DNA of 64,000 nucleotides from Gemmatimonadales bacterium. Its GTDB lineage: Bacteria; Gemmatimonadota; Gemmatimonadetes; Gemmatimonadales; GWC2-71-9. The stretch lies in the NCBI GenBank assembly GCA_041741375.1, contig JBGSKF010000116.1:6784-70783 (forward strand). Reading direction: 5' to 3'. Position numbers and translations under genes: made by a program. Below, in pieces: positions 7,237 to 59,544 of this stretch. The notes beneath the pieces were generated by a model that worked only from the letters and a program-made list of their open reading frames with translations, made no database searches and was not told the DNA's origin. Each line of letters begins with the position of its first letter. Within the stretch, counting starts at the first letter, position 1.

Positions 7237-7288
7237 GCGCCTTCCCCATTGGCCTGATGAACAATGAATGATGAAAGACAACGGACAC

Positions 7289-7317
7289 ATGGATTCCCGC
7301 TTTCGCGGGAATGACGG
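7289..7317. repeat. Small palindromic element of the 'MDSRFRGND' type
   Basis: atggATTCCCGCtttcGCGGGAATgacgg has an 8-bp stem at 7293-7300 / 7305-7312. Related hairpins (gtcatccc...gggatgac type) occur at 39665-39690, 39866-39891, 59545-59575 and 62240-62267. Confidence 0.7.
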
Positions 7318-7336: not shown

Positions 7337-7423
7337 CCCATTCGCCATTCCCCTTCTCCCTATTCCCCTACTCCCTATTCCCCTATTCCCCTATTCCCTA
7401 TTCCCTATTCCCTATTCCCTACC
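7337..7423 (-). repeat. Heptad array (GGGAATA/GGGGAATA/GGGAGTA)n, G-rich on the minus strand, abutting the gyrB stop
   Basis: Plus strand reads ccattcccc ttctccc tattcccc tactccc tattcccc tattcccc tattccc tattccc tattccc tattccc tacc. On the minus strand this follows the gyrB TGA (7424-7426) directly. Confidence 0.9.
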
Positions 7424-9691
<2,268 letters not shown>

Positions 9692-11673: not shown

Positions 11674-11721
11674 GGGGGGCCAGGTTGGGATGAGGAAGCG
11701 CGAGACGGGAAAGATACACTC

Positions 11722-11835
11722 GGTGTAGGGGGTAGGGAGTCGGGAGTAGGGTGTAGGGAAGAGGAGAGAGGAAAGAGGAGTGAGAAGTGAGATCGATCTC
11801 CTCTCTCTCCTCACTCCTCTCCGCTCACTCCTCCA
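11722..11835 (+). repeat. G-heptad array followed by a purine-tract / pyrimidine-tract imperfect inverted repeat
   Basis: 11722-11760 reads ggtgtaGGGGgtaGGGagtcGGGagtaGGGtgtaGGGaa. 11761-11835 reads gaggagagaggaaagaggagtgagaagtgagatc|gatctcctctctctcctcactcctctccgctcactcctcc, centred on gatcgatc. It lies in the divergent gap between the crotonase and mtnA genes. Confidence 0.8.
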
Positions 11836-11852
11836 GAGATTACCTTGCATGG

Positions 11853-12890
11853 ATGGAATTTCCCGAACCCGTGGCCTGGGCTGCGGACGACGCCATCCGG
11901 ATTCTGGACCAGACCGATCTTCCGGGCCGTGAAACGTATCGCACCCTCGAGACGGTGGCCGATGTGGTGGAGGCCATTCGCCAGCTTCGGGTCCGCGGGG
12001 CGCCGCTCATCGGCGTTGCGGCCGCGATGGGGATGGTCGTGGCTCTCCGGAGTGCCGGCCGGGGAAACGGCCACGCGCAGCTGATCGAGGCGGGGCACCA
12101 GCTCAAGGCCTCCCGCCCCACCGCGGTGAACCTGGCGTGGGCCGTGGACCGGATGCTGGAGGTCGCGGGGTGCGTGCCGTCCGGAGACGCGCTGCGGGAC
12201 GTGGTGCGGCGCGAGGCCGAGCAGATTCTGAAGGAGGAGCGGGAGAGTTGTGACCGGATCGGGGAGGCGGGCCTGTCGCTCATTCCGGAGGGGGCCACGG
12301 TCATGACGATCTGCAACGCGGGGGTGCTGGCCACGGGAGGGATCGGAACGGCCACGGCGCCGATCTATCGCGCCCATGCCGCGGGACGCCGACCCACCGT
12401 GCTGGTGCCGGAGACCCGCCCCCTGCTGCAGGGCGCCCGGCTCACGGCCTGGGAGCTGACCCGGGCCGGGGTGGCGGTGATCCTCCTGCCGGATGGCGCG
12501 ATCGCCTCGCGATTGAGACGGGGGGACGTCGTCGGCATCTTCACCGGGGCGGACCGGATCGCGCGGAACGGCGATGTGGCCAACAAGGTGGGGACGCTGG
12601 GGCTGGCGCTGGCGGCCCGGCATGCCGGCGTCCCCCTCTATGTGGCGGCTCCGGGCTCGACATTCGATCCGCTCTGTGCGGAGGGAACCGCGATTCCGAT
12701 CGAGATGCGGGGACCGGAGGAGGTGCGCGCCGTCGGGGGAGTGGCCACCTCGCCTTCCGGAGTTCCGGTCTGGAATCCCGCCTTCGATGTGACGCCCGCG
12801 GAGTTCGTCACCGGGTACCTCACGCCCTCCGGCCTGCTCCACCGGGATGACCTGGAGTGCTTCTTCGACGCGAGGAGAACCACGACATGA
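11853..12890 (+). CDS. mtnA: Methylthioribose-1-phosphate isomerase (eIF-2B alpha/beta/delta-like family)
   Basis: MEFPEPVAWAADDAIRILDQTDLPGRETYRTL...VRGAPLIGVAAAMG...RPTAVNL...ICNAG.LAT...GADRIA.NGDVANKVGT... This is the typical MtnA layout. Confidence 0.8.
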   Translation: MEFPEPVAWAADDAIRILDQTDLPGRETYRTLETVADVVEAIRQLRVRGAPLIGVAAAMGMVVALRSAGRGNGHAQLIEAGHQLKASRPTAVNLAWAVDRMLEVAGCVPSGDALRDVVRREAEQILKEERESCDRIGEAGLSLIPEGATVMTICNAGVLATGGIGTATAPIYRAHAAGRRPTVLVPETRPLLQGARLTAWELTRAGVAVILLPDGAIASRLRRGDVVGIFTGADRIARNGDVANKVGTLGLALAARHAGVPLYVAAPGSTFDPLCAEGTAIPIEMRGPEEVRAVGGVATSPSGVPVWNPAFDVTPAEFVTGYLTPSGLLHRDDLECFFDARRTTT

Positions 12891-26301: not shown

Positions 26302-26865
26302 ATGCTCGCCGAGGCCCTCGCGTCCGTCCTGGTGGCCCTCGCCATTCTCTGGCTTCTGTTCGCTCCGCTCCTGGGGGCGGCGTCCCCGGAACCGGCGTGG
26401 GAGGAGCCCGAGGACCCCGATGAGACACCTCGAGGGGTCGCGTTGATCGCCCTCAAGGATCTCGAACTCGATCGCGCCACCGGGAAACTCTCGGATGAGG
26501 ACTACGTGATGTTGAAGGGTCGGTACGCCGCGGAGGCTATCACGGCGCTCCGCGAGGAGGAGGCCCGCCCGGCCGCACGCAGGGGCGGAGTGGTGGATGT
26601 GGAGGCGCTGGTCGTCGGCCGGCGCCGTGCGGTGGCGAATGCGGAGGGGGGGGCACAGGGGAAGGCACTCTCATGCCCCCGCTGTGGTCCGCGCCCCGAG
26701 CCCGATGCACGGTGCTGTTCCGGTTGCGGGGCGACCCTGGTGATCGAGGGTGATTGCGGAATGTGCGGCGCCGTGGTGGAGGCGGCCCAACGGTTCTGCG
26801 GGTCCTGTGGGCGTACTCTCGCCACGCGGGGTGAGGAATCCGAGCCGGTCGCCGCCCACGCCTGA
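26302..26865 (+). CDS. CcmI-N-terminal-like membrane protein fused to a C-terminal double zinc ribbon
   Basis: TM helix (LASVLVALAILWLLFAPLL). The segment ALKDLELDRATGKLSDEDY resembles the CcmI/CycH N-terminal module. C-terminus CPRCG...CCSGCG...CGMCG...FCGSCG. Confidence 0.55.
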   Translation: MLAEALASVLVALAILWLLFAPLLGAASPEPAWEEPEDPDETPRGVALIALKDLELDRATGKLSDEDYVMLKGRYAAEAITALREEEARPAARRGGVVDVEALVVGRRRAVANAEGGAQGKALSCPRCGPRPEPDARCCSGCGATLVIEGDCGMCGAVVEAAQRFCGSCGRTLATRGEESEPVAAHA

Positions 26866-26870
26866 GGGAC

Positions 26871-26909
26871 GTGCGAAGTGTGAAGTGTGAAGTCTGACGT
26901 TTGAAGTTT
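26871..26909 (+). repeat. Heptad array (GTGAAGT-type) just after the stop of 26302-26865
   Basis: gcgaagt gtgaagt gtgaagt ctgacgt ttgaagt. TGA recurs with 7-nt spacing. Confidence 0.8.
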
Positions 26910-39350: not shown

Positions 39351-39368
39351 GGGTACCACGGAGCGTCA

Positions 39369-39930
39369 CCCCGGCGGACGCCGAGGTCCATGGGAGGTGT
39401 GAGGTGTGACGTAGGGGCGAAATACCTTTCGCCCGTGAGGGCGAATGAATCACGCGAAGACGCGAAGACGCGAAGACAAAAAGGACGTCGGGGCACGGAG
39501 CCCACCTCGGAGCGTCACCCCGGCGCACGCCGGGGTCCATTGGATGTGTGATGTGTGACGTAAGGGCGAAAGACCTTTCGCCCGTGATGGTGAATGGATC
39601 ACACGAAGACACGAAGACACGAAGGAGAGCGAGATCTCGATCGTTCCCCGGAGCGTCATCCCGAGCGGAAGCGAGGGATCTGAGGACGTCGTAGGTGTAC
39701 TTCCCGTCGTCCGGACGACGATGCTGGAGGGCGCCGAGGTCGGTCACGGTGTGGGGTGTGACGTGGGGAGGCCTTGCGCTGTGATGGTGAATGGATCACA
39801 CGAAGGCACGAAGACACGAAGACACGAAGGAGAGCGAGATCTCGATCGTTCCCCGGAGCGTCATCCCGAACGGAAGCGAGGGATCTGAGAACGTCGTAGG
39901 TGTACTTCCCATCGTCCGGGCTCGTTGCTT
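39369..39930. repeat. Mosaic tandem repeat block built from several small palindromic units and 7/8-mer arrays
   Basis: Two A units (39369-39490 and 39518-39633, period about 149 nt): cggagcgtcaCCCCGGCGnaCGCCGgGGtcc..(gtgtga)2cgtaGGGCGAAAnaCCTTTCGCCCgtga..(acgMgaag)3. Two B units (39634-39735 and 39839-39930): agagcgagatctcgatcgttccccggagcgtcatcccgaRcggaagcgagggatctgag..gtaggtgtacttccc. A partial A unit lies between them. Confidence 0.85.
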
Positions 39931-41659: not shown

Positions 41660-42918
41660 TGCCAGTTGGAGCCCACCGCGCCTCCGTCCGATCAGTTGCG
41701 CTGGTCCTGCTTGGTATGGGATGTCTTGATGCAGGAGAAACGTCCATAGATCCATCGACGCTCCCTGAGCTTCATGTGACCGGCCAGGTGACTGGTAACC
41801 AGAGGTTTAGGATATCGAGCGCAACCGCGACAGACTCGTGTGGAATCGTGGTTGTTGGGCGCGATTGGGGTACTGCAGTTAGCGTTATGCCCGAGAATCC
41901 GAACGGTGGCGCGGGCACCGTGACTCGTCTACCAGGTTACCCCGAGGGGGCGAATGTAGCGAGAAGCGGGAACCATGAGGTGGTCTACTGGTACGAGGAG
42001 CCGGAAGGGTGGGGGATGGTCTTGGGAGGGGACGATGCACGACCGTTTAGCCCGCCTGAGCATCCTTGGGGAGGCCTGGCTATTGGCCCAGTGGTGCCCC
42101 TCTCGGCCGGTCGTTTCGCCATGGCGATATTCGGCGGCACCAAGGGTCGGCGAATGCCCGAGAAGTCGTCACACACGCCACTGGTCTTGATCGTGGATTC
42201 GAGTGGTGAAAGCATTGGACGCGTGGGTGAGCTGAAAAGCGGCAGGGGGCACTATCGGCCGTCATTGATGGCAAAGTCAATCGTGGGAGCTGTCGGAGAC
42301 ACTGTTCTGGTACTGACCTTCCAGGACGCAACCCTCACCGCCTATGATGTCACAGCAGGCGGTACCGCCGACAGGGCCTTATGGTCGGAGGAGCTGCCGC
42401 GATACATCAGCACGAGTGACCCCCGTGAGGAAGTCATGGACGCACCGTGGGTCGTCAACGCTCCGTGGTCGGTCGTGTCTCTTCCGCAGGTGACTGTGGC
42501 CGCCTTTGATCGGTTCGGCAATGTTTACGCGATCCGTCCTACGTCAAGACGGAGGACCATCGGTGGCGGGGGTGGGTTCGAGATTAAGCGCCAGTGGGTC
42601 GGGGCGAACCACATCCTGGAGATGTTCGACCTAAGAGGGCGGGTGAAAGGTAGATATCGGCTGCCGAGTGGCCTTCTGGGGTGGTTGAATGTCGCTCCCA
42701 ATGGACGGATCTTCCTCCTGACCGCGACCGACTCTTTGACTGCGACCAATTCTCTACTTCTCGTTGACAACCCCCTGCTGCCTGATCAATGCTCTGGAGT
42801 TCCCGAGACGGTGCACATCCTGTCGCACGACACTCCTCCGGCCGAAGGCTACAATTCCTCCGCGTTCCGTGACCGGGAGACACGCCTCACTCGGTCGTTG
42901 GTTCCGGTACCGCGATGA
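41644..42918 (+). CDS. Lipoprotein, divergent beta-propeller-like (same operon as 42915-44189)
   Basis: Lipobox VALVLLGMGC. ATG at 41644, with an alternative at 41659 forming TGATG with the upstream stop. Repetitive beta-rich body. Only weak similarity to the next gene. Confidence 0.55.
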   Translation: MPRHLMPVGAHRASVRSVALVLLGMGCLDAGETSIDPSTLPELHVTGQVTGNQRFRISSATATDSCGIVVVGRDWGTAVSVMPENPNGGAGTVTRLPGYPEGANVARSGNHEVVYWYEEPEGWGMVLGGDDARPFSPPEHPWGGLAIGPVVPLSAGRFAMAIFGGTKGRRMPEKSSHTPLVLIVDSSGESIGRVGELKSGRGHYRPSLMAKSIVGAVGDTVLVLTFQDATLTAYDVTAGGTADRALWSEELPRYISTSDPREEVMDAPWVVNAPWSVVSLPQVTVAAFDRFGNVYAIRPTSRRRTIGGGGGFEIKRQWVGANHILEMFDLRGRVKGRYRLPSGLLGWLNVAPNGRIFLLTATDSLTATNSLLLVDNPLLPDQCSGVPETVHILSHDTPPAEGYNSSAFRDRETRLTRSLVPVPR

Positions 42919-44189
42919 AACGCCGACAGTCAGTTCCCTTCCGTTCAAACCAGAGCAATTGCGGAGTCGCTCTTGTGACACTGGTCCTCATTGCCTGTGG
43001 CCCGGATGGCGCGAGGCACGAGGACCGCTCCAGTCCGCGTTCCCAGTTTGATAGCGAGATGGGGACTCTTGTGATCGAGAATTCAGCGCCTCTCTGGCGG
43101 CTTGGAGAGGAATGGCAGGTCGACACGGTTCCCACGGTGGCGATCGGGGCGGTGAGTGGCGGCCACGGCCCGGATCTCATGCGGGTGGGAGACATTGTCC
43201 CTCTGAGTGACGGCAGGATCGTTGTCCAGAACAGCGGGACCAGCGAGCTTCTCCTTTACGACTCCAGCGGCATGTTTCTTCAGGCGGTCGGCCGCCCCGG
43301 CCGAGGTCCCGGGGAACTGTCCGGCATGCTGCGCCTGTTCCGATGTGGTGGCGATACTTTGCTGGTAACAGAAGCGAACGCTATCAGTGTCTTCAGCCCA
43401 TCAGGGCACTTCGTTCGGAGCCATCGCGTTTCGTGGTCCCCAGGGTACGATCGTCACGAGATTGGAGGCGTCGCCGCGGACTGTTCCATAGGGCTCACCG
43501 TTTACCGGGAGCCGAGGGCTCCCGGCACGAGCGTGTACTACCACAGATACGTTTTCTCCCGGGAGTCGGGAACGCGCGCCAAATCGAATATCGGCTCGTT
43601 CGCCGGCCCGGATCTGGTCCCGCTCTCGGGGCCTTGGGCCATCAATCCTGTCCCCCAGCCCTTCGGCCGGGAGGATCTCTGGACGGTGACAGGGGATCAG
43701 ATGGTGATCGTGCCGAGCGACACGGCGGAACTGCGCACCTGGGGTGACGCCGGCAAACTCACTCGGGTCGTCCGATGGAATGCTCGTCCAGAGCCGGTGG
43801 GCGAGGCGGATCGCGAGCGATTCGCCAGAGAGAGTGAAGAGTTCCTCCGCCTGAATCCCGAGGAGGCTCCTCTTTTCCCTCCGCTGGAACAACTCTCGCC
43901 GCCGACCCACAAGCCCCTGTTTTCTCGTGTACTGGCGGATGACGAACAGACCCTCTGGATCCGCGAGTATCCGGTGTCCGCAGCGGGCCGCCCGTGGCTG
44001 CGCCGGCCCCGGGAGGGCGATCCCCCGGAGGAGTGGACCGTGATCGATTCGACGGGCCGCTGGCTCGGCGTGGTCCGGATTCCGGGCGGCGTGGAAGTCA
44101 AGGCGATCCAAGCGAGGCGCATCCTCGGAATCGCCCGCGATGCCGACGATGTGGAAGAGGTGAGGGTCTACCGGATAATCAGGGAATAG
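42915..44189 (+). CDS. Lipoprotein of the 6-bladed beta-propeller (TolB-like, GxGPGE motif) type
   Basis: ATGA overlap with the previous gene. Lipobox LVTLVLIAC. Motif GRPGRGPGELSGM. It is a paralog of 46731-47981 and shares its last 60 nt almost exactly. The stop TAG sits inside the heptad array. Confidence 0.7.
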   Translation: MKRRQSVPFRSNQSNCGVALVTLVLIACGPDGARHEDRSSPRSQFDSEMGTLVIENSAPLWRLGEEWQVDTVPTVAIGAVSGGHGPDLMRVGDIVPLSDGRIVVQNSGTSELLLYDSSGMFLQAVGRPGRGPGELSGMLRLFRCGGDTLLVTEANAISVFSPSGHFVRSHRVSWSPGYDRHEIGGVAADCSIGLTVYREPRAPGTSVYYHRYVFSRESGTRAKSNIGSFAGPDLVPLSGPWAINPVPQPFGREDLWTVTGDQMVIVPSDTAELRTWGDAGKLTRVVRWNARPEPVGEADRERFARESEEFLRLNPEEAPLFPPLEQLSPPTHKPLFSRVLADDEQTLWIREYPVSAAGRPWLRRPREGDPPEEWTVIDSTGRWLGVVRIPGGVEVKAIQARRILGIARDADDVEEVRVYRIIRE

Positions 44190-44231
44190 GGAGTAGGGAA
44201 TAGGTGGTAGGGGCCGTTCGCGAACGGCCCC
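44182..44231 (+). repeat. Composite element: G-heptads (GGGAATA GGGAGTA GGGAATA GGTGGTA) plus the perfect palindrome GGGGCCGTTCGCGAACGGCCCC
   Basis: Heptads run from 44182. The 22-nt palindrome lies at 44210-44231. Confidence 0.9.
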
Positions 44232-44344: not shown

Positions 44345-44922
44345 TCAGATCGGCCGGAACAGGTTCTCCAGATCGATCACCAGGGCCTCGCCCGCCCCGG
44401 AGGGATGCCAGCGGACCGCCGTGCGCTCGATGGCGGGCGTGACGACCTCCGGAGTCCAGACCTCCACCGCCTTGGCCTCGGCGTCCACCAGCCAGTAAAG
44501 CGGGACGGCCCACCTGCGCGAGCCGCCTTGGGTACTCGTCGGCGCCGTTGCACGGGCCGTTCGCGAACGGCCCGTACAGTCTCCTGACATCCGATCCAGC
44601 CGCTGCGCGGGGGGCTCTGCGCGTTGCCCCTGACCCCGCCTCAGATCGGCCGGAACAGGTTCTCCAGATCGATCACCAGGGCCTCGCCCGCTCCGGAGGG
44701 ATGCCAACGGACCGCCGTGCGCTCGATGCTCGGGGTGACAGTCTCCGGAGTCCAGACCTCCACCACCTTCCGGTCGGCGTCGACCAGCCAGTAGAGCAGG
44801 ACGGCCCACCTGCGCGAGCCGCCTTGGGTACGCGTCGGCGCCGTTGCACGGGCCGTTCGCGAACGGCCCGTACAGCCTCCTGACATCCGATCCAGCCGCT
44901 GCGCGGGGAGTCCCTGACCCCC
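44345..44922 (-). pseudogene. Two tandem truncated copies of the Uma2 endonuclease 3' end, each with a hairpin-containing spacer
   Basis: Units at 44345-44640 and 44641-44922 each start with tcagatcggccggaacaggttctccagatcgatcaccagggcctcgcccg..., which is about 160 nt nearly identical to the 3' end of 44923-45465. They encode ...LYWLVDA..VEVWTPE.VTP.IERTAVRWHPSGAGEALVIDLENLFRPI. About 125 nt of spacer then follows, carrying ACGGGCCGTTCGCGAACGGCCCGT (44552-44575 and 44848-44871). Confidence 0.8.
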
Positions 44923-45465
44923 TCAGATCGGCCGGAACAGCTTCTCCAGATCGATCACCAGGGCCTCGCCCGCTCCGGAGGGATGCCAACGGACCGCCGT
45001 GCGCTCGATGCTCGGGGTGACAGTCTCCGGAGTCCAGACCTCCACCACCTTCCGGTCGGCGTCGACCAGCCAGTAGAGCGGGACGCCCACCTCCCGGTAG
45101 AGCCGCCGCTTGGTGACACGTTCCTGGCGGGCGCTGGAGGGACTCACCACCTCGACCACCAGGAGAAGAGTCTTGATACTGTCCCACGACAGCGCACGGG
45201 CTTCGGTCCGATCCGCCACGAGCAGGTCGGGAATCACCAGCGTGTCGTCCGACCAGGAGATGTCGCCCCCCGTAGCCCCGACTCCCACCGGAAACCGTTC
45301 GAGATAACCGGCGATGGCGTGGGTCAGCCGGAAGAGTACGAACTGGTGCCAGGCCCGCGGCGCAGGAGTCACCAGAAGCTCCCCGTGCACGGTCTCGTAC
45401 CTGTTGCCGTCCTCCGGCAGGTCCAGGACCATGGCCGCGGTGAAGTACGAGAGAGACATGCCCAT
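44923..45465 (-). CDS. Uma2-family (DUF820) putative endonuclease
   Basis: MGMSLSYFTAAMVLDLPEDGNRYETVHGELLVTPAP...PDLLVAD...LLVVEVVSPSSARQERVTKRRLYREVGVPLYWLVD. The PD-(D/E)xK-like core is typical of Uma2. Confidence 0.8.
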   Translation of the reverse strand: MGMSLSYFTAAMVLDLPEDGNRYETVHGELLVTPAPRAWHQFVLFRLTHAIAGYLERFPVGVGATGGDISWSDDTLVIPDLLVADRTEARALSWDSIKTLLLVVEVVSPSSARQERVTKRRLYREVGVPLYWLVDADRKVVEVWTPETVTPSIERTAVRWHPSGAGEALVIDLEKLFRPI

Positions 45466-45844
45466 AGTATCGGCTCGGCGAAGGGGGGTTGGCAAGACAT
45501 CTCCCCACGATGCCGAAGGCGCCATCCACAGCGGTAACCCGATTCACGCAGAGCAGGGCATTTCGATGCGGATCGCCACCCCATCGGAACCACAGGGCCG
45601 GGCCAACCGATCCTTTGGCGTGAGGGCCGTTTGCGAGCGGCCCCTACAGCCTATCGCCAACCGCCAACCGGCTGTTCCAAAACCGAACACCCAAAACCCA
45701 CTACCTGATGTCCGATGCCAGCCGCCGCGGCCACAGGTGAGTGCCGTGCGGAGCAGTAGGATTCAGGCTCGCCGCGAAGACGGGGCGCGGGGTATCGATC
45801 TGGGGAGCCAGATGTTGTACCGCCTACGCTCGAGTGGAGTGTCG

Positions 45845-46405: not shown

Positions 46406-46730
46406 ACGTTCGTCTCGGCGGTGGAGGTTGTGCAAGGGGGGTGGGGTGGGTGTTGGGTGTCGGGTGTTGGGGGTTGGTGAGCAGGATGGCGGGGCCATTC
46501 TCAAGAATCGCCCGGGATCGTCCGGATCCGATCACCGTTTCGGCTCACCGATGACCCGGAAAACGCGGTGTCCCCCGGCCTCGATTGGTGCTCCCCGGGG
46601 CTGATGCCCCTTGCTGGCGCCTGCTACCTTCCGTCGTACGGCCACCGAGTTCGGGATCCAAAGGTCGGACCTCCGGCGTTCCCTGGGAGCGGGCGGTTGG
46701 TCCACTTCGACTCAGAGAGAACAGAAACCG

Positions 46731-47985: not shown

Positions 47986-48125
47986 TAGGGAGCAGGGAAT
48001 AGGGAGTAGGCGGTAGGGAATAGGGGCGACGCACTGCGTCGCCCGAGGCCTGGATGGTGGTCGTACGGGCCGTTCGCGAACGGCCCGTACAGCTTGCCTA
48101 CCTCCAATACCAGCCGCTGTGCGGG
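47986..48125 (+). repeat. Composite intergenic element: G-heptads, hairpin GGCGACGCA-c-TGCGTCGCC, and the 28-nt perfect palindrome GTACGGGCCGTTCGCGAACGGCCCGTAC
   Basis: Heptads at 47986-48026, first hairpin at 48024-48042, second palindrome at 48063-48090, tail ...ccagccgctgtgcgg. The same part order is seen at 44182-44300 and 59289-59440. Confidence 0.85.
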
Positions 48126-48247: not shown

Positions 48248-48319
48248 GGGCGAACGCCGTTCGCCCCTACTCCCTACTCCCTACTCCCTACTCCCTACTC
48301 CCTACCGCCTACCGCCTAC
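48248..48319 (-). repeat. Composite element in minus orientation: G-heptads on the minus strand plus hairpin GGGCGAACG-c-CGTTCGCCC
   Basis: Plus strand reads gggcgaacgccgttcgccc (48248-48266), then (ctactcc)5 ctaccgc ctaccgc ctac (48267-48319). The minus-strand TAG stop of 48316-48936 lies inside the array. Confidence 0.85.
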
Positions 48320-48936
48320 TGACCCTGTCCCGGTGCGCCCGGCGACGCGAAGATCACCAGCCCTTGATTCTGGCATCCCGGCCCCGGATTTCTCTTGCAC
48401 GATGCGGCGAGGGTGCTGGTCTGAGCGGCCAGGAGGATTGGATCGGTCTCCGCCGGTCCGTGGCTCCGGAAGATGAAATGGACCTCCGCCTGAAACGGAT
48501 TGTCGATCCCGGACCGACCGGCGCCGCGAAGGGTTTCGCGGGAGTCATCGTGGCGCGCCAGACGGACCTCGAACGTTCCATTGGCGTTGGCCACGAATCC
48601 ACCGAAGTTTGACTGGGCACCCTCCACCAGGGGAAGATCAAGGTCATCCGCGTTGCATCCATCCACGCAGGCTCCCGGGTTCTCGAAGATGGCTGACCAG
48701 AGCGTGTATGCGTGACCCTCCACGAAATCGTCAGACTGGCCGGAGAGCGAGAGTCCCTCGGCGTGTCGAACCAGGGTGGCGGTCCCGGAGAAGAGACCCG
48801 TGAACCCCGGAGCCAGCCCGATGTTGGCGCTTTGGGTTACCTCCGCGCCACCCGGGTCTGCGAGCGACGATCCGTCGCAGGCGGCCAGCGGCAGGCCGAG
48901 GGCGATCAGAAAGAGTGTGGACGAAGTGCGAGACAT
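48316..48936 (-). CDS. Hypothetical lipoprotein
   Basis: Start at MSRTSSTLFLIALGLPLAAC (lipobox). No recognised domain. Confidence 0.5.
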   Translation of the reverse strand: MSRTSSTLFLIALGLPLAACDGSSLADPGGAEVTQSANIGLAPGFTGLFSGTATLVRHAEGLSLSGQSDDFVEGHAYTLWSAIFENPGACVDGCNADDLDLPLVEGAQSNFGGFVANANGTFEVRLARHDDSRETLRGAGRSGIDNPFQAEVHFIFRSHGPAETDPILLAAQTSTLAASCKRNPGPGCQNQGLVIFASPGAPGQGQ

Positions 48937-49148: not shown

Positions 49149-49763
49149 ATGACCGGACAGGCACCCCGCCCAGAGGACATCACCGGCGTGCTCGGGAGGG
49201 TCCGGAAGGGCGACCCCGAGGCGATGGGAGTTCTCATGCCCCGCGTCTACGACGAGCTTCGCCAGATCGCCCATCGTCACCTGCGTTCGGAGAGAGCCGG
49301 TCACACCCTCTCCACCACTGGTCTCGTCCATGAGGCCTACCTGCGGCTGGTGGATCAGCAACGGGTCGAATGGGTGGACCGCGCCCATTTCTTCGCCGTG
49401 GCCGCACGCATGATGCGTCGGATCCTGATCGACTACGCGCGCCGCCATCGTGCCCTGCGCCGGGGCGGGCCCCACCACCAGGTGATTTCTCTCGATGCCG
49501 CTGAGGTGCAGAATTCCGCCCTAGCCGAGAACGACCCGGAGATCGTTGCACGGGCGGAGTGGCTGCTTTCGCTGGATGAGGCGCTCGACCGGCTCAAGGA
49601 CGCGAATGAGCGCCAGGCCCGGATCGTCGAGTGTCGGTTTTTCGGCGGGCTGACCGAGCACGAAACGGCCGCGGCGCTCGGGGTGTCCCAGCGCACGGTG
49701 TCGCGCGAGTGGAGCCTGGCGCGGGGATGGCTTTATCGGGAGTTGCGGCGTGACGTCGCCTGA
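49149..49763 (+). CDS. ECF-type RNA polymerase sigma factor (the subfamily usually paired with Ser/Thr kinases)
   Basis: DITGVLGRVRKGDPEAMGVLMPRVYDELRQIAHRHLRSERAGHTLSTTGLVHEAYLRLV...WVDRAHFFAVAARMMRRILIDYAR, plus a sigma-4 HTH (LTEHETAAALGVSQRTVSREW). Confidence 0.85.
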   Translation: MTGQAPRPEDITGVLGRVRKGDPEAMGVLMPRVYDELRQIAHRHLRSERAGHTLSTTGLVHEAYLRLVDQQRVEWVDRAHFFAVAARMMRRILIDYARRHRALRRGGPHHQVISLDAAEVQNSALAENDPEIVARAEWLLSLDEALDRLKDANERQARIVECRFFGGLTEHETAAALGVSQRTVSREWSLARGWLYRELRRDVA

Positions 49764-52440
49764 CCGTCCTGGCTCCGAGCAGGGAGCCCTGGTGCAACGG
49801 CTGGTCGCGCGGGCGCTCGACCTCCCGGTCGAGGAGCGCGGGGCCTACCTCGCCGAGGCCTGCGCGGGAGACAGCCCACTGCGGAACGAGGTCGACACCT
49901 GGGTGCGGGCCTGTACGGCGAGCGGGGAGGAGGGGTTTCTCGACGGATGCGCGGCGGAACACGCGGCCCCCCTGCTCGAGCAGGTGGAGCGGTGGGAGAC
50001 GGGGGACGGAGATCGGCAGATTGCCCTGGCCACCCTCACGTCCCTCCTGTCCGACCGGTATGAGATCGATCGCGAGGTGGGACGGGGAGGCTCGGCGACG
50101 GTATTCCTGGCGCACGACCGCCGGCACGATCGTGCGGTGGCGATCAAGGTTCTGGATCCCCGCCTCGCCGCATCGGCCTCGGCCAGCCGGTTTCTGCGGG
50201 AAATCAGGCTCGCGGCCCGAATGACTCACCCGAACATCCTTCCGCTCCACGATTCCGGCGATGCGGGAGGCCTCCTCTACTACGTGATGCCGTACGTCGA
50301 GGGGGAATCCCTCCGCGCACGGCTGACCCGGCAGGGTCCGTTCCCCGTGCCCGAGGCCCTGGGCCTGCTCCGGGAAGTGATCGGCGCGCTCGCCCATGCC
50401 CATCGGCAGGGGATCGTGCACCGAGACGTCAAGCCGGAGAACATCCTCCTGCTGGATGGCCATGCGGTCGTGGCCGACTTCGGGATCGCCCAGGCCCTGG
50501 ACACCGCGCTCGGGCAGGAAGGGGAGGTCGAGGGCCCGGAGTTGGGACGGGTCGCGACGGAGACCCGGGAGAGCACCGTGATCGGAACTCCCGCCTACAT
50601 GGCGCCGGAGCGGATGACACCCGGGTGGACCACGGATGTCCGTGCCGATCTCTATTCTCTCGGCGTGGTGGCCTACGAAATGCTCGGCGGAACCAACCCG
50701 TTCACGGCCGAGACGCAGGAAGCGACCGCGTCTGCCCAGCGGGAGAGGGTCCCTGCTCCCCTGCGCGCCGCTCGTCCCGATCTTCCCCCGGACATCGAGA
50801 ACCTGGTGATGGCCCTGCTCGCCAAGGATCCGGCGGACCGACCGCCGAGCGCCGAGGCGGTGCTGGAACGCCTGGAACGGGGGATGGCTCGGGCTGCTCT
50901 GTCCGGGGGGGTGGCGCGGAGCCGCCGGTGGCCGTCCCTGGTGGGCATGGGGGCATTGGCTGTGCTGGCCGGAGGCGTCCTGACCGTCGTGCTGTTCCCG
51001 CGCGCCGTGGCCCCGGTGTCGGATCGCAGGATCGCCGTCCGGGTGTGTGAGAACAGGGGGACCGGAGGAGACCTGGCCCTGGCCCAGGCGCTGACCCAGG
51101 AAATCACCGGGAAACTGCGTGGGATCGCCGGACTCAGGGTGATCGGGCAGGAGAGCATGCGGCGCTACGAGGGGAGGGCCACGCCGGCCACGACCATCGG
51201 GGGGGACCTGGGCGTCGACTATGTGCTCGGCTGCACCGTGGAGTGGACCCGGCGCGAGGACGGGGAGGCCCTGGTGCGGGTCCGGTCGGAGCTTCAGCGG
51301 GCCGGCGACAACACGGTGCTCTGGACCCTGGCGCCCGATCCCCAGCCGGTCGGGGACATCATCGCCTTGCAGGCCACCGTGGCCGACCGGGTGCTCGACG
51401 AACTTCGGATAGGGTCGACGGAGGCGCAACGTCAGGCGCGAAGGCGTTCTCCGACAGTGAGCCTGGCAGCGTATCAACACTACCTGACCGGACTCGCACG
51501 AGTGGCCCTCACCACCCAGGCGGCTCGGGAGGAGGGGCTCCGGTCGTTCGAGCGTGCGATCGCGCTGGATTCCTCCTTCGCACTCGCCTGGGCCGGTCTG
51601 GGGCTTGCCTGGCTTCACCTCCCCCCCTTCTGGGACCGTCACGACTCGACCGGGAACCTCGCGCCGAACAGCCTCGAAGCCTATCGGCGGGCGGAGGAGG
51701 CAGCAGGTCAGGCGCTGCGACTCGACCCCACGCTGGTGGAGGCCCGTGTCGTGCTGGAGTCGGCCCGATTCTATATCTCGTGGGACTACCGTGCTGCCGT
51801 CGCGTCGCTGGACAGGTTGACCCTTCAAGCCCCGGATGACCTTTACGCCCAGCAGCGTTACCGGATGGCCCTGGTCGCGGCGGGCCGGTTTCCTGAAGCC
51901 CTCGCCGTGTCGCGCCGGGCGATCGATCTCGACCCTCTGCACCCGGTCACGAATACTTTTCTGGCTGTTGACCTCGCCCGGATGGGAGAGACCGAAGAGG
52001 CGATCGCGATTCTCCGGCGGGTGGTGGGATGGAACCCCGATTTTGCCCAGGCGTTCATGGTGCTGGGAACCCTGCAACTCCAGGCCGGGGCGCGCGGCGC
52101 GGGCGCCGACACCGCCACCCGGTTCCTGACGCTGCGCGGCTACCCCGCGTCGGCCACCGACAAGGTCCGGCGCGCCCTGGCGGGTACCGGCCCGGTGTCG
52201 GAGGCCATCGAGGTGCTCGACGACCTGCAACGCGGTATCTGGGAACCCGAGGGTCGTCTTGCCGGGTATTACGCCCTGCTCGGGGAGCGGGGCCGAGCGC
52301 TGGCGCTCCTGGAGCGAGCCAAACGGCAGCACGTGGGCGAACTTCTCTTTCACCGATCGATGCCGTTCTTCGTGTCCCTGAGAGGAGATCCGCGGTTCGA
52401 GGCGACCTGGGAGGAGCCTCTGCCCGGGAGTGGGGAGTAG
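49750..52440 (+). CDS. Ser/Thr protein kinase with a TM helix and C-terminal TPR-rich extracytoplasmic region
   Basis: GTG start overlaps the sigma gene by 14 nt. Kinase motifs VAIKVL, HRDVKPENILL, DFGIA and GTPAYMAPE. TM helix WPSLVGMGALAVLAGGVLTVVLF, followed by TPR-like repeats. Confidence 0.85.
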   Translation: MTSPDRPGSEQGALVQRLVARALDLPVEERGAYLAEACAGDSPLRNEVDTWVRACTASGEEGFLDGCAAEHAAPLLEQVERWETGDGDRQIALATLTSLLSDRYEIDREVGRGGSATVFLAHDRRHDRAVAIKVLDPRLAASASASRFLREIRLAARMTHPNILPLHDSGDAGGLLYYVMPYVEGESLRARLTRQGPFPVPEALGLLREVIGALAHAHRQGIVHRDVKPENILLLDGHAVVADFGIAQALDTALGQEGEVEGPELGRVATETRESTVIGTPAYMAPERMTPGWTTDVRADLYSLGVVAYEMLGGTNPFTAETQEATASAQRERVPAPLRAARPDLPPDIENLVMALLAKDPADRPPSAEAVLERLERGMARAALSGGVARSRRWPSLVGMGALAVLAGGVLTVVLFPRAVAPVSDRRIAVRVCENRGTGGDLALAQALTQEITGKLRGIAGLRVIGQESMRRYEGRATPATTIGGDLGVDYVLGCTVEWTRREDGEALVRVRSELQRAGDNTVLWTLAPDPQPVGDIIALQATVADRVLDELRIGSTEAQRQARRRSPTVSLAAYQHYLTGLARVALTTQAAREEGLRSFERAIALDSSFALAWAGLGLAWLHLPPFWDRHDSTGNLAPNSLEAYRRAEEAAGQALRLDPTLVEARVVLESARFYISWDYRAAVASLDRLTLQAPDDLYAQQRYRMALVAAGRFPEALAVSRRAIDLDPLHPVTNTFLAVDLARMGETEEAIAILRRVVGWNPDFAQAFMVLGTLQLQAGARGAGADTATRFLTLRGYPASATDKVRRALAGTGPVSEAIEVLDDLQRGIWEPEGRLAGYYALLGERGRALALLERAKRQHVGELLFHRSMPFFVSLRGDPRFEATWEEPLPGSGE

Positions 52441-52579
52441 GAGGAGGGAGACGGCGGACCGCGTCGACCTCCGCTTGACAACCGACCCGCAGCGGTGCCC
52501 TTTACTGTTTCCGTAAGCAAGAGTCCTGTCCGGGAATCGCCCCGCGATCCCGGGTCCGCCATTCGACCCGAGCCGCTTC

Positions 52580-53962
52580 GTGACCGCTCCGCTGCCCGCA
52601 GCTGTGGGCCTCTGGGAATCCGAACTGTGGGACGAGTTGCTCGCCAACCTCGACGAGCGGCGCGTCATCCCCATTGTGGGTCCGGATCTCCTCGAGGTGG
52701 AGACGCCGACCGGTCCTGCCCGCCTGGAAACGTGGTTGGCCGCACAGTTGGCGGAGCGGGTCGGACTGCACGATCTGCCCGCCCCACGCACGCTCAATGA
52801 GGTGGTCTGCGCCCACCTGCGCCGGGGACAGCGCCGGGAGGCGCTCTACCCCCGTCTCAAGACGATCTTCCAGGAGGCGGCCATCACCCCGCCGCCGGTC
52901 CTGCGAAAGCTCGCCGAGATCGCCCATTTCGACCTGTTCGTCACCACCACGTTCGACCCCCTGCTCGAGGAGGCCCTGAATGCCGTCCGATTCAGCGGGG
53001 AACAGCGAACGGAGACCATGGCCTACTCCACACGCGAGGCGCACGACCTGGCGGTGCCGAAGCGCGACCTCCGGGCCCCGCTGGTCTACCACCTCTTCGG
53101 CCGACTCTCGGCGTCTCCCTCCTATGTCCTGTCCGAGGAGGACCTGCTCGAATTCATCTTCGCCCTGCAATCCCCGGCCCGGGCGCCGGAGCGACTGTTC
53201 GATGAACTGGAGCGCAACCACCTGCTGCTTCTCGGGGTGAATTTCGCTGACTGGTTTGCCCGGATGTTTCTCCGCACCGCGAAGGGACACCGCCTGTCGG
53301 AGGCCCGCGAGGTGCTGGAGATCCTGGCCGACTCCCGCACGCCGGGCGAGCAGGGGCTGGTCACCTTCCTGGCGCATTTCAGCAGCCGCACACGGGTGTT
53401 CCAGGGGACCGCCGTCCAGTTCGTGGACGAACTCCACCGCCGGTACCGGGAACTCCACCCCGCGGAGGAGACCGGTCCCGGGCTCGCGTACCACGACGAG
53501 ATGCGCCCGGGGTCGGTCTTCCTGAGTTATGCCAGCGAGGACCGGCGGGCGGTGGAGCGCCTCAAGGCGGGGCTCGAGGCGAGCGGGATTCCAGTCTGGT
53601 TCGACCGGGATCAGCTCAAGGCCGGTGATCACTGGCGTGATCTGCTGCGGCACAACATCGATCAGTGCAGTCTTTTCATCCCCGTGCTCTCCGCCACCAC
53701 CGAGCGCAAGATCGAGGGCGAGTTCCGTCGCGAGTGGCGCTGGGCTCTCGATCGCGAGCAGCGGATGGCCGGAGGGCGGGTGTTCATTCTCCCCGTCGTG
53801 ATCGACGAGACCGAGACCTTCACAACCGCCGAGCGACGTTTTCTCGAACTTCACATCGCCCGGGTACCCGGAGGGGAGGTCTCCCCGGATTTCGGCGACC
53901 GGGTCCGGCACATTCTGGAGCGGGTCGCACCGGCGGCGGAGGGGAGGAGGGGGGCGCCATGA
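52580..53962 (+). CDS. Fusion protein: degenerate SIR2-like (SIR2_2-type) N-terminal domain plus C-terminal TIR domain
   Basis: SIR2_2-like motif order: VIPIVGPDLL; LFVTTTFDPLLEEAL; VYHLFGR...YVLSEEDLLEF; HLLLLGVNFADW. TIR motifs: VFLSYASEDRRAVERLKAGLEASGIPVWFDRDQLKAGDHW...CSLFIPVLS...EGEFRREW. GTG start. The stop overlaps the next start (ATGA). Confidence 0.75.
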   Translation: MTAPLPAAVGLWESELWDELLANLDERRVIPIVGPDLLEVETPTGPARLETWLAAQLAERVGLHDLPAPRTLNEVVCAHLRRGQRREALYPRLKTIFQEAAITPPPVLRKLAEIAHFDLFVTTTFDPLLEEALNAVRFSGEQRTETMAYSTREAHDLAVPKRDLRAPLVYHLFGRLSASPSYVLSEEDLLEFIFALQSPARAPERLFDELERNHLLLLGVNFADWFARMFLRTAKGHRLSEAREVLEILADSRTPGEQGLVTFLAHFSSRTRVFQGTAVQFVDELHRRYRELHPAEETGPGLAYHDEMRPGSVFLSYASEDRRAVERLKAGLEASGIPVWFDRDQLKAGDHWRDLLRHNIDQCSLFIPVLSATTERKIEGEFRREWRWALDREQRMAGGRVFILPVVIDETETFTTAERRFLELHIARVPGGEVSPDFGDRVRHILERVAPAAEGRRGAP

Positions 53963-56900
53963 CCCCGCGAGCGTCCCCCGTCCCGGCGGGGCGGGAAGAT
54001 CCCGTCGACACCGCCAATCCCTGGCCGGGGCTGGCCGCATTCCGTGAGGGAGCCCACGCCTTCTTCCACGGGCGCGCGGCCGAGATCGAGGATCTCGAAC
54101 GCCGGGTGCGCCGGAAACCCCTCACCGTCCTTTATGGCCAATCGGGACTGGGCAAGACCTCCCTGCTGCAGGCGGGGCTCTTTCCCCGGCTCCGCGCCGA
54201 GGGGTTCCTTCCGGTTCCCCTGCGGCTGGATTATGCCGCGGCCGCAGAGGATCCGGCCGCCCAGATCAGGCACGCCCTGGCGGAGGCGTTTCGGTCCGCC
54301 GGCCTCGATGCGGGCAACCGGTTTGTCGAGGGCTCGGTCTGGGAATGCTTCCACCGCCTCGAGGAGGAGGGAGAGGGGGAGACGTCCGCGCGCCCGGTCC
54401 CGGTGCTGGTGTTCGACCAGTTCGAGGAACTGTTCACCGTGGGCCGGGGCCCGAGCGAGTCGCAATCCCGGGGCGATCTCGTGGTCGAGGAGCTTGCCTC
54501 TCTCATCGAGAACCGTCCTCCCCGTGCCCTCGAGGCCCGCTTCGAGAGCCACCCCGGCCTGGTGGAGCGGTTCGACTTCGAGCGACAGGACTACCGGGTT
54601 CTCCTGAGCCTGCGGGAGGATTATCTCCCCCATCTGCACGACCTCCGGGGGAAGATCCCCTCCATCACCCTGAACAGCATGCGGCTCGGCCGGATGGATG
54701 GGGAGCGGGCTCTCCAGGCCGTTCTGCGGCCCGGGGCGGACCTGGTGGCGCTGCCCGTGGCCCAGGCCCTCGTCCGGTTCGTGGCGGGGACCCCGGAAGC
54801 TCGGAGGACCGGTCATGCGGCCTCCAGCGCGGGGGCCGAATTCCGCGCCCTGGAGGTGGAGCCGGCCCTGCTCAGTCTCTTCTGCCGCGAACTCAACCAG
54901 AAGAGAATCGCCCGGGGCGACGCCGAGATCTCCCTCGACCTGGTGCGGGGTAGCCGGGAGGCGATTCTCCAGGAGTTCTACGAGGGGTGTTTTGCCGACC
55001 AGCCTCCGGCGGTCCGCGCCTTCGTGGAGGAGGAGCTCCTCACCGAGTCGGGGTTTAGGGAGAGTCTCACCCGGGAGCGGGCCGAGCAGGAACTGTCCCG
55101 CCGCGGCGCCCGGCCCGGGGCTCTCGATGTGCTCATCAACCGGCGTCTCCTGCAGGTGGAGGAACGGCTCCGGGTGCAGCGTGTGGAGCTCACCCACGAC
55201 GTCCTGGCGGAGGTGGCGCGCCAGAGCCGGGTCGGCCGCCGGCATCAGGAGGCCCTGGAGGAGGCGGAGCGTCAGGCGGGCCAGGCGCGAGAACTGAGCC
55301 GCCGGGCCCGCCGCCGCTCCCTGCTGATCGGAGCGACCGCCCTCGGCATCGGGGGACTGCTGGCCCTGGGTGGTCTGGTTGCGATCCGGCAGAGTCGACT
55401 TGCCCGGGAGGCAAGCGTGAAGGCGCAGGTGGCGGAGAGTCTGGCTGTGCAGCGGGCCGAGGATGTGACACGGTTGAACCGTGGCCTCGTGGACAGCGCA
55501 GCGATTCTGTCCAACCAGAGGGACGAACTGGGCCGTCAGGCGGCGGCCGTGGCTGCGGCGCTTCGCCAGCAGGAGATGCTTCGGCGTGATGCCGAATCGA
55601 ATGCCGCCCAGGCCCGGGATCTCGGTGCGGCTGCCGCGCGGCGGCTGGAACAGATCTGTGACTACAGCCTGGCCCTCGCCTCCGCGCTCTCGGCGGAAGT
55701 CAACTCCCAGCAGCTTCCCGATTCGCGCAGTGGCGAGGACGGCGGAGGAGGGGCGGCCGCCTCCGAGGTGTTCCAGGAGTATCTGCAAACCACGAACCGG
55801 CATTTCGACAGCCTCTATGTCCAGGACTCCTCCGCCGCCTGTGTCCGCCAGATGCGGGCCCGGATCAAGGTCATTGCGGCCGGCGCGGCCCAGGAACGGA
55901 ACCGACGGCAGGAGATCCTGCGGTGGAGCCGGGAGGGGCTCGGAGCGGTGCAGGCGCTGCGCGACCTGGATGACGCGGGGTCACGGCATCTGGCCCAGAT
56001 CCTCTACACCGACCTGGCCTACTACCTCTGGCTCGTGGACGACACGACCAATGCGCAATCCGCCGCCGTGGAGGGCATCACCGTTTCCCGGGTTCTGGAT
56101 GCCCGAGACAATCGCAACACGCTTTTCCGTCACGCACGGCTCCACCAGATGTACGGCAACGTCTGGATCGACCGGAAGGAGTATGCCCGCGCCCGTGAGG
56201 AAGTCCTGGCCGGGCTTCGAATCGCCGACAGCGGCCTCCGCCGCGCCGATCAGGATTCCCTTTCTCTCCTCCTTGCCCGGAGCCAGCTGTCCCTCCGGCT
56301 CGGAGCGTTGGATACCCTGGCCGGTGCCCATGAAACCGCCGCCCAGCATTACGCCGAGGCGGTGGCGAGTGCCGAAGCGCGTGTGTCCCACCGTCGAACG
56401 CGGGCCACGGTGGAGTGGTTGGGCCGAACCCAGGAATGGCTTGGAAACCTTTCCCGGAGCCTCGGCCGGTACGACGCGGCTCGGACGGCGTGGGCGAATG
56501 CGGCCCGCACGCTGCAGGACACGATTCTCCCGGTCGCCACAGCCCTTCCGCACCTGGAGCGCATCCAGCGATCGGCCATCCGCCTGGAACTGGCGGCGGC
56601 GGACACGGGACGGGCGCTGGAGCAACTGAGGCTCCGGCTCCGCCTGGACTCGGCTCGCGTACGCCAGACCCGCGGCCTCCCGGCGGCCCTGGATACCCTC
56701 GCCAACGCGCTCACCCTGATGGGCAGTGTGGCCCAGGCATCCCGCCGGTTCGATCTGGCCATCCGGGCCCGCGCGGAGCTGATCGGTGTTCGCCGTGATC
56801 TTCTCCGCTTCGAGGGTCGCACGGCTCGGTCCAATCTCGCCATCGCACTGGGGAACTCCGCCTGGAGCAGGCTCTTCGGCAGGGAGGGGGAAGAGGCTGT

Positions 56901-57207: not shown

Positions 57208-57566
57208 GTCTCGCACGGTCGCGCCTGCCGACCGAATTCAGGACGATCTGGTTGTGCCGGCCCGTGAGCAGGACACCTGGCACCGGTGCTGTTTCCACAA
57301 CTCCGGAGAATCGCCTCGGGCTGGTTCCCATACGTTCTGGTCCTGGCGGGGGGGCAGGGGAGGAGGAGTGGGCTCGGTGCCACCACAGGCAACGGTCAAG
57401 CCCGCATTGTAGCACGAATCAACGGTAGGAGAAAGTCGCGATGGCCACCTCCGGCCTCGGGGGGATATCGTGAAGAGTTGGCGCCATTCATGGGGCACCG
57501 CGCCGCGCCCGGGCTTCAATCCGGGCGAACAAGACGTTGCGACACTCAGGCTCCAGATTGGTGCAG

Positions 57567-58126: not shown

Positions 58127-58629
58127 ACGTTCGTCTCGGCGGTGGAGGTTGCGCAAGGGGGGGGGAGAAAAAGTGGTGGCGCATACCCAAGAATCACCGG
58201 TATCGGCGGGATCGGGGCACCGTTTCGGCTCAGCGGTGACCCGGAAAATGCGTGGCGGTATCAGAGAGTGGGGAATCGGTGAGGGCGGCGCCAACGGCAG
58301 CGAGTCCGTGGGGGCGACCTCTGTGTGTTCTCGGGGTCACCGAGAAAGCACCTGCTCACGCGGAGACGCGGAGACGCGGAGGGGAGTGCGTGGCCGCGAT
58401 TCTGGGAAACTCCGGTGCATGAGAAATGGGTGGCCCCACCCCCCACCAGTGATACTCGCCACTGCTCCCGGTTCCAGGAAGCGGTATTCCACCTCCGCGG
58501 CTCCGCGTGGGAACATTCCGGATCCCGGCCCGGTGCGATTGCCACAGGGCGGACGCGTGAGGACAGCTTGACCAACTTGACCAACAGGGCCGCCCCGCGG
58601 TACCTTCTCAGGCAATCGGAGGTGCCATC

Positions 58630-59255: not shown

Positions 59256-59264
59256 CGGCAGGGC

Positions 59265-59440: not shown

Positions 59441-59544
59441 TATGCCCGCCTGCACCCTGCCGTCCGGACGCCAGGTCGGTCGTCGAACGGGGAGTGGAGG
59501 ACGCAGCCGACGGGAAGTGCACCGACCCGTCTCCATAGATCCCT

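Follow-up and report, generated by a model that had tools for sequence, protein, structure and literature searches.

Heptanucleotide arrays of fixed polarity at open reading frame ends in a Gemmatimonadales genome

Results

Tandem heptads lie against gene boundaries

This study concerns a 64,000-nucleotide stretch of contig JBGSKF010000116.1 (hereafter the window) and the tandem arrays of heptanucleotides (heptads) that lie in it on or against the ends of open reading frames (ORFs). The window has a base composition of 67% G+C and, as judged from its GyrB and UvrA homologues, comes from the metagenome-assembled genome (MAG) of a soil Gemmatimonadales bacterium. It carries gyrB, an IF-2B-family gene and an enoyl-CoA hydratase (ECH) gene around a divergent spacer, uvrA, paralogous beta-propeller genes, a defence-like island and an operon of small paralogous proteins. 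Flanking genes were defined from codon-usage gene calls, Pfam matches and gene calls on related contigs.

A first-pass annotation of the window had placed arrays of the unit TAGGGAR (R, purine) at eight loci and proposed that these, together with a second, GTGARxx-type family, are polar, possibly mobile 3'-end modules that can terminate any incoming ORF and may act as G-quadruplexes (G4). The eight loci were confirmed: matches to three tandem TAGGGAR units (with up to three mismatches) numbered 29 in the window versus 0.01 expected from shuffles, and all were confined to these loci. Seven was the commonest tandem period (11-12 arrays, 388 bp; no other period has more than 7 arrays), both with Tandem Repeats Finder and in a separate, concordant period scan. 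Isolated TAGGGAR words outside the arrays were not enriched (4 vs about 11 expected), showing that the phenomenon is one of tandem arrays and not of a dispersed motif. The second family proved weak and heterogeneous, with two matches at one mismatch and mainly 2-3 units of mixed sequence, and it resolves into a purine-rich mixture of GTGTGAA, GAGAAGT, GAGGTGT and AAGAGGA. Two further arrays were found, at 46445-46477 (GTTGGGT) and 11797-11833 (minus strand), and the locus first given as 59296-59408 (here 59295-59411) consists of two arrays with a hairpin between them.

One strand leads away from the adjoining ORF

In all of the approximately 14 heptad arrays of the window, the 5' end of the G- or purine-rich strand is found 0-64 nt away from the boundary of an ORF, and in every case this strand leads away from the adjoining ORF (Table 1). 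Where the boundary is a stop codon (gyrB, the zinc-ribbon gene, the beta-propeller genes, gene 48316-48936 and three small genes), the G-rich strand is the sense strand; where it is a start codon (the ECH, IF-2B-family, Uma2 and DPP-IV genes), the G-rich strand is antisense. Intergenic regions are therefore often bracketed by inverted arrays, and the arrays at 47986 and 48263 form such an inverted pair. The polarity first proposed thus holds, while the count on which it was based, a sense G-rich strand at six of the eight TAGGGAR loci, amounts to about four independent cases, because three of the arrays (44180, 47986 and 59295) are paralogues that were copied along with the gene 3' end and the hairpin, the 59295 copy following a pseudogene remnant. 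Calling the arrays 3'-end modules is too narrow, since they also adjoin start codons, in the opposite orientation (11722, 11797, 46445 and 59578, and 12198-12251 in the relative L122).

Pooled over the arrays, the strand that exits the ORF contains 4.8% C and 53.8% G, versus 32% and 35% in the genome, and this C-poor strand bias is the only property common to all unit families here. Such an extreme bias suggests a composition-dependent polar effect on transcripts. The arrays might, for instance, be polar transcription insulators, in which ORF-entering transcripts would carry a C-rich, G-poor, unstructured Rho-loading tract and terminate and exiting transcripts would not. This would fit the strand composition, its presence in every unit family, including those without G4 motifs or stop triplets, and the symmetry of the arrays at both ORF ends, which matches an entering-versus-leaving rule. 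In L122, however, a C-rich array adjoins the GTG start of an acetyltransferase gene, so that the leader of this gene would itself contain a Rho site; the comparison with other lineages, given below, also weighs against insulation. A Shine-Dalgarno explanation was tried and found weak: an SD-like 4-mer precedes 17 of 35 confident starts vs a 29% background, and Shine-Dalgarno use looks weak overall. The leaders of many first genes, among them gyrB, uvrA and the ECH gene, are rich in pyrimidines.

Table 1. Heptad arrays, hairpins and other repeats and gene groups of the window. Positions are those of the window unless a relative is named.
Feature	Position (nt)	Strand	Context
(TAGGGAA/TAGGGGAA)n, about 11 units	7337-7423	-	Starts 2 nt past gyrB TGA (7424-7426); G-rich strand is gyrB sense
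TAGGGRG-type units, then purine-only AAGAGGA/GAGAAGT units	11722-11795 (TAGGGAR matches 11722-11760)	+	Divergent spacer; 5' end 52 nt from ECH start (11673, minus strand), antisense to that gene
Inverted purine-rich heptads (GGAGGAGTGAG...)	11797-11833	-	5' end about 20 nt from IF-2B-family start (11853)
(GTGTGAA)5	26868-26909	+	5 nt past TGA of zinc-ribbon gene 26302-26865
TAGGGAR array	44180-44214	+	Unit 1 is the last two codons and TAG (44187-44189) of beta-propeller gene 42915-44189
GC palindrome hairpin GGGGCCGTTCGCGAACGGCCCC	44210-44231	unstranded	Directly after the 44180 array
(GTTGGGT)4-5	46445-46477	+	40 nt upstream of and antisense to Uma2-family start (46405, minus strand)
TAGGGAR array	47986-48026	+	4 nt past TGA of paralogous beta-propeller gene (..47981)
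(TAGGCGG)2(TAGGGAG)5	48263-48319	-	First TAG (48316-48318) is the stop of gene 48316-48936 (minus strand)
TAGGGRG array	59295-59335	+	After degenerate beta-propeller 3' end, in segmental duplication; 40 nt past PIN stop (59255)
Second array, degenerate TAGGGAN	59368-59411	+	Followed by hairpin 59408-59429
(TAGGGAG)5 and TAGGCGG-like units	59578-59643	-	5' end 64 nt upstream of, and antisense to, DPP-IV start (59707)
Purine-rich heptads GGAGGGA GTGGAGA GGAGTGA GAAGCGA	62629-62662	+	Final codons and TGA (62647-62649) of small gene 62377-62649
(GAGAAGT)n	63188-63218	+	Final codons and TGA (63205-63207) of small gene 62968-63207
GGGGAAT/TAGGGAG array	63504-63545	+	Final codons and TAG (63523-63525) of small gene 63277-63525
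REP-like hairpin	63570-63593		After the 63504-63545 array
REP-like GC palindrome GGGCCGTTCGCGAACGGCCC	44210-44231, 44554-44573, 44850-44869, 45624-45644, 48067-48086, 59408-59429		Intergenic, mostly right after a heptad array; 48067-48086 and 59408-59429 follow arrays like 44210-44231
Variants of GGGCCGTTCGCGAACGGCCC	48023-48044, 48248-48267		After arrays, like 44210-44231
Second hairpin family, GTCAYYCCGGCG-N3-GCCGGGGTCCAT (or GTCATTCCCGCGAAAGCGGGAATCCAT)	39365-39388, 39514-39537, 63570-63593, ~7283-7310(-), ~59541-59565(-); L122 ~12010-12045		Downstream of arrays and genes
Composite tandem modules, 149-205 bp	39355-39920		Downstream of uvrA
296-bp tandem repeat, 2.6 copies, 92% matches	44345-45092		Overlaps a 400-aa minus-strand ORF without Pfam match
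Segmental duplication, 76-87% identity	45802-48068 / 57524-59370		
Defence-like island	49149-57207		Flanked by arrays
nSTAND ATPase gene	53959-57207		Accessory gene, few orthologues
Octamer array ACGCGGAG	58358-58381		
PhdYefM antitoxin and PIN toxin pair	58657-59255		Immediately upstream of the 59295 array
Tandem operon of small proteins	62377-63998		At least five paralogues
Small-protein copies in L130	19060-21148		Seven or eight copies, then a CesT-like gene and PspA

Arrays turn over in place at orthologous sites

Close relatives differ at the site after the gyrB stop: genomes sharing 97% or more GyrB identity show four states there. The window reads TGAGG(TAGGGAA)n, L121 (GyrB 98%) TGAGG(TAGGCGG)13 and L122 (97%) TGAGG(GAGGGAG, TAGGGAG/A)n; L127, L131 and L132 (all 97%) have no array. 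Aligned with L121, the no-array allele (L127, L131) lacks one cleanly delimited, array-sized stretch of about 74 nt, which in L121 separates the stop from a conserved hairpin (GGGGCGGCCCGTGGGCCGCC). Among the gyrB-site alleles we found neither flanking duplications nor shared flanks: only array length differs, and the hairpin stays put. Identical arrays were present in L122 (from NCBI) and L123 (from ENA), hence the arrays are not assembly artefacts. Downstream of gyrB, L127, L131 and L132 carry arrays of the hexamer TAGGGG where the other alleles have heptads; these have 3-4 copies, the number differing between two metagenome contigs, and both short contigs end inside the repeats.

Other sites behaved similarly. 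The divergent IF-2B/ECH spacer holds different arrays in each relative, with GAAGTTY at one start and CCCTACY or CCGCCTA at the other, and is an array-free 33 bp in L124 (85% GyrB identity). The 26868 array has five units in the window vs three in its L129 orthologue, and the 59578-59643 array is missing at the orthologous L130 site. Period 7 was dominant in the window and in L121, L122, L127 and L129. In contrast, 52 kb from three loci of relatives at 82-85% GyrB or UvrA identity (L124, L130 and L126) contained no heptad array at all. These results indicate a recent, lineage-specific bloom.

This pattern bears directly on the suggested mobility of the arrays. A mobile 3'-end module, carrying array and hairpin together into gene ends in the manner of a miniature inverted-repeat transposable element (MITE) or a repetitive extragenic palindrome (REP), could account for the similar GC hairpin after the array at several loci and for the recurrence of one unit at many. 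Flanks are shared, however, only where whole gene segments were duplicated, the units differ between orthologous sites, and neither terminal inverted repeats nor target-site duplications were seen. Nor are array and hairpin present or absent as a unit, the gyrB hairpin standing without an array in L127 and L131 and the L121 array lying between the stop and that same hairpin. With gyrB-site relatives differing by clean in-place expansion, insertion of a mobile module is scarcely credible as the origin of the arrays.

Arrays supply some stop codons and follow others

On the G-rich strand, stops occur in all three frames, and on the C-rich strand in none, as first annotated; the positions given for stop codons inside or near arrays were also all correct (Table 1). 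An array-borne stop is used by four or five genes in the window. In the small genes of the operon (those carrying an ERLDFAERLL motif), array sequence makes up the final 3-7 codons as well as the stop, and the spacers measure 39-185 nt; in the array-free L130 the orthologous tails are unrelated and 3-6 residues longer, and the spacers measure 2-20 nt. By this comparison, in three small genes (62377-62649, 62968-63207 and 63277-63525) the arrays have overrun non-conserved tails and now supply the stop.

A second situation is found in the beta-propeller genes. The family-typical C-terminus reads ..VRVYRIxR/K.., so the gene ending at 44189 retains its natural tail and the first array unit provides no more than the stop and the two codons before it, while the paralogue ending at 47981 is slightly truncated by its own TGA. 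We had considered that the 44189 copy arose by stop-loss read-through, which was rejected as the family C-termini show the 44189 tail to be ancestral and the 47981 copy to be the truncated one. Likewise, the idea that genes ending in EEVRVY are of TnpB/IS605 type, with the array at a transposon end, was discarded because their Pfam match is a six-bladed beta-propeller family.

At gyrB, the final residue (..LDV) is identical with and without an array among the relatives compared. The comparison of orthologous C-termini, to which the first-pass annotation had looked for a decision, thus goes against a selected stop-module role. The claim that arrays terminate ORFs is itself supported, by the three small genes and by 42915-44189. 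Altogether, arrays both land on stops and lie after pre-existing ones.

It could still be argued that the arrays are a selected translational backstop, whose all-frame stops every 7 codons would cap translation at gene ends after read-through, a frameshift or stop loss. In favour of this, the frame arithmetic holds, an array-borne stop is in use in four or five genes, and the stops of G-strand ORFs lie a median of 7 nt from the cyanobacterial arrays described below. Nevertheless, GyrB keeps its own stop and last residue whatever the array, array presence varies among near-identical relatives, and arrays also adjoin start codons, where a backstop would be meaningless. Moreover, the heptamers GGGAATC and GGGGAYT share the polarity (Rehm et al., 2015, PLoS One, PMC4692102), and neither unit, as read here, contains a stop triplet on either strand. 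Any T-containing purine-rich unit has about a one-in-three chance of holding a stop. We consider a selected backstop distinctly unlikely, and stop supply by arrays looks like a side effect and not a purpose.

The open C-rich strand has a practical consequence, as gene callers run ORFs through it: the acetyltransferase of L122 is called with the beginning ..PTPYSLLPIPYSLFPT.., whereas its true start is the GTG adjoining the array. Arrays thus mislead gene callers through C-rich-strand extension, yielding PYSLLPT-type N-termini.

G-quadruplex potential is not conserved

The canonical (G3N1-7)4 motif, which the arrays had been said to fit, is found at six of the eight TAGGGAR loci and in the GTTGGGT array, and is absent at 44180, at 47986 and in all GTGAR arrays. 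With G4 energies included, ViennaRNA predicted quadruplexes of -8 to -25 kcal/mol, versus about 0 for ordinary folding. A functional G4, in which the sense-strand array would fold past the stop as RNA or non-template DNA and pause or terminate the polymerase or block 3'-to-5' exonucleases, would be consistent with these predictions, with the excess of canonical intrinsic terminators being nil (see below), and with the polarity itself, which is that of heptamers that fold in vitro by circular dichroism (CD; PMC4692102); in this view a G4 in a 5' leader would prevent initiation, which would keep G-rich arrays out of it. Comparison across arrays and relatives argues otherwise. TAGGGAR and GTTGGGT have one tract of three or more G per unit, the sister arrays TAGGCGG, GAAGTTY and GAGAAGT do not, and arrays of GAAGTTY, GAGAAGT, GTGTGAA and AAGAGGA, which lack such tracts and the motif, keep the same polarity. 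The orthologous gyrB array of L121, (TAGGCGG)13, has no G3 run, L127 has no array there, and two of the TAGGGAR loci themselves lack the canonical motif. In addition, inverted array pairs would form a competing long duplex; the pair 47986/48263 is predicted to close a long RNA stem (z = -8.6). The G4 potential of the arrays is not conserved, contrary to the first proposal, and a functional G4 is in our judgement rather unlikely.

A GC-rich hairpin follows most arrays at stops, without the T run of an intrinsic terminator. Hairpin-plus-U terminators occurred at chance level in the 40 kb scanned (8 vs 8.1; 8 vs 6.7) and none was at an array, and an Rfam scan of the window found no known RNA family. 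A candidate hairpin at 11720-11840 was dropped, as it is no better than shuffles (z = -0.4). The GGGCCGTTCGCGAACGGCCC palindrome is widespread well beyond this lineage, its 20-mer matching at least 120 JGI metagenome contigs (48-75% GC); in this metagenome scan the 20-mer was not clade-specific and yielded just the general period-7 background. Sequences of the second hairpin family, when translated, give the familiar spurious SFPRKRES-type peptide.

Arrays with the same polarity occur in other lineages

Exact TAGGGAR x3, sought in one genome per species, was present at at least 120 loci; the scan needed at least three exact units, which biases the copy-number distribution. Among the matches listed, to which the remaining figures of this paragraph refer, most were in filamentous cyanobacteria, being abundant in Nostoc, Okeania, Trichodesmium, Rivularia, Moorena and others, and the rest in Planctomycetota, Acidobacteriota, Gemmatimonadota and other groups. 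In the cyanobacteria, the ORF 5' of the G-rich strand was nearer than the 3' ORF in 51/66 cases (p = 1e-5; low-GC loci, arrays flanked on either side by an ORF of 120 codons or more), with median array-ORF distances of 28 nt on the 5' side vs 164.5 nt on the 3' side and sense-strand stops at a median of 7 nt. When ORFs of 150 or more codons are counted, 25 stops on the G strand and 7 on the C strand fall 0-50 nt upstream of an array.

The polarity of the cyanobacterial arrays matters for the insulator explanation, because cyanobacteria, by a published survey of its distribution, reportedly lack Rho; a Rho-based insulator is therefore unlikely to be general, and we rate it as very unlikely here.

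An excess of period 7 is not confined to these arrays. In 578 kb of unrelated high-GC metagenome contigs, seven was the dominant non-triplet period (32 arrays with many different units), versus 0, 9, 3 and 6 arrays for periods 5, 8, 10 and 11.

Neighbouring genes and other repeats

Each composite module downstream of uvrA is made up of a first hairpin, 2-3 GAGGTGT heptads, another hairpin and three octamers (ACGCGAAG or ACACGAAG). The modules recur in L129 with another copy structure, and 20 kb of that relative contain 8 octamer arrays. The segmental duplication contains a Uma2-family endonuclease gene, a beta-propeller 3' end, an array and a hairpin, the beta-propeller being a remnant in the second copy. 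An ECF sigma factor, a Ser/Thr kinase with TPR, a SIR2-TIR protein and a 1082-aa nSTAND1 ATPase make up the defence-like island, and the Logan contig L128, which has this sequence, begins within the 48263 array. The small proteins of the tandem operon have an N-terminal transmembrane helix, a coiled coil, the ERLDFAERLL motif and a variable tail, and gave no Pfam match.

Discussion

We propose that the arrays are probably heptanucleotide simple sequence repeats (SSRs), of the class that includes cyanobacterial short tandemly repeated repetitive (STRR) sequences and the G-rich heptamers of Xanthomonas and Nostoc, which expand in place, are kept in one orientation and cap ORFs as a by-product. 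Heptad arrays have bloomed in one genus-level Gemmatimonadales lineage, where they arise, expand, contract and switch unit in place, most likely by slipped-strand mispairing, in short unconstrained spacers beside ORFs, typically with a stop codon before them and a GC-rich hairpin downstream. Only one orientation persists, with the G- or purine-rich, C-poor strand leading away from the adjoining ORF, and purifying selection is the presumed cause. This strand happens to hold T-purine-purine stop triplets, and an array that grows into or adjoins a non-conserved C-terminal tail caps the ORF within 7 codons. Such capping would be tolerated, hence arrays are found on and against stops; a locus-specific function would not be required.

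Heptanucleotides of the STRR type were reportedly described in cyanobacteria by Mazel et al. in 1990. Like them, the present arrays are dispersed tandem heptanucleotides in non-coding DNA; the classical STRR units differ, and the lineage here is non-cyanobacterial with a GC content of 67%. The Calothrix STRR heptanucleotides are cited by Rehm et al. (PMC4692102), whose own study concerns the G-rich heptamers GGGAATC in Xanthomonas and GGGGA(C/T)T in Nostoc. Those repeats vary in length and sequence between close relatives, fold into G4 in vitro, and preferentially lie no more than 50 nt past a stop if on the coding strand, or upstream of a start if on the non-coding one. The arrays here agree in being head-to-tail, dispersed and intergenic, with one G3-4 tract per unit; in following the 50-nt stop/start placement rule, stop overlap included; in having the nearer ORF 5' of the G-rich strand, whatever the ORF orientation; and in their inverted pairs and same-locus variation in copy number and sequence. 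They differ in their unit TAGGGAR (with the sisters TAGGCGG, GAAGTTY and GAGAAGT), which bears a stop triplet and can and does end ORFs, in a Gemmatimonadales MAG as host, and in the loss of G4 capacity in some orthologous arrays.

A further likeness is to the TAACTGA direct repeats of Beggiatoaceae, cyanobacteria and Bacteroidetes, which can overlap just the very end of a coding sequence, with 13 stop-overlapping cases listed (MacGregor, 2015, PMC4679880). These too are intergenic heptamers, and that paper already argued from their stops in all three frames of the forward strand and their open reverse strand. In the orange Guaymas "Maribeggiatoa" (BOGUAY), however, most arrays point to a start a few nt downstream (PMC4679880), whereas here the stop-bearing strand faces away from starts (antisense at 11722, 11797, 46445 and 59578 and in L122). 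The TAACTGA unit is also A/T-rich and without a G4 motif, and its arrays are short (2-6 copies), unlike those here. Period 7 is over-represented among the non-triplet periods of bacterial long SSRs (LSSR), and polymerase slippage has been proposed as their origin (Mrazek et al., 2007, as summarised in PMC4692102 and PMC4679880). The period-7 excess is shared here, with slippage likewise a proposed origin; the LSSR work is a general survey that describes neither the TAGGGAR unit, nor this lineage, nor ORF-end polarity. No publication naming the TAGGGAG or TAGGGAA arrays themselves turned up in a literature search for these exact sequences.

Several observations weigh against in-place SSR expansion as a full account. 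Neutral slippage alone does not explain the polarity. Local composition was tried as its seed and rejected, since array-free relatives have no purine or G bias beside ORF ends (purine fraction 0.49 upstream and 0.49 downstream of ORFs). The occurrence of TAGGGAR at about six independent loci and in several phyla exceeds what random seeding predicts and hints at a sequence-specific bias or function. Finally, the architecture of stop, array and GC hairpin, without canonical terminators, also fits a 3'-end role. Stop, C-free G-rich array and U-less GC hairpin might therefore form a selected, orientation-dependent gene-boundary composite, serving as a non-canonical terminator or 3'-end stabiliser combined with an all-frame cap; such a composite seems unlikely. 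If it were real, it would suit lineages without canonical intrinsic terminators and with weak Shine-Dalgarno use, and unit turnover would be tolerated because just period, strand composition and position would matter.

The SSR reading extends the class of G-rich heptamer repeats with strict ORF-end polarity to Gemmatimonadota and to the unit TAGGGAR. In practice, the arrays break short-read assemblies, the contigs L128, L131 and L132 ending in them. The orthologous series at the gyrB stop separates G4 potential, lost in one allele, from the stop triplet, which is kept, and from the C-poor strand bias, which is always kept. It is a natural experiment that makes the reason for the polarity more directly testable.

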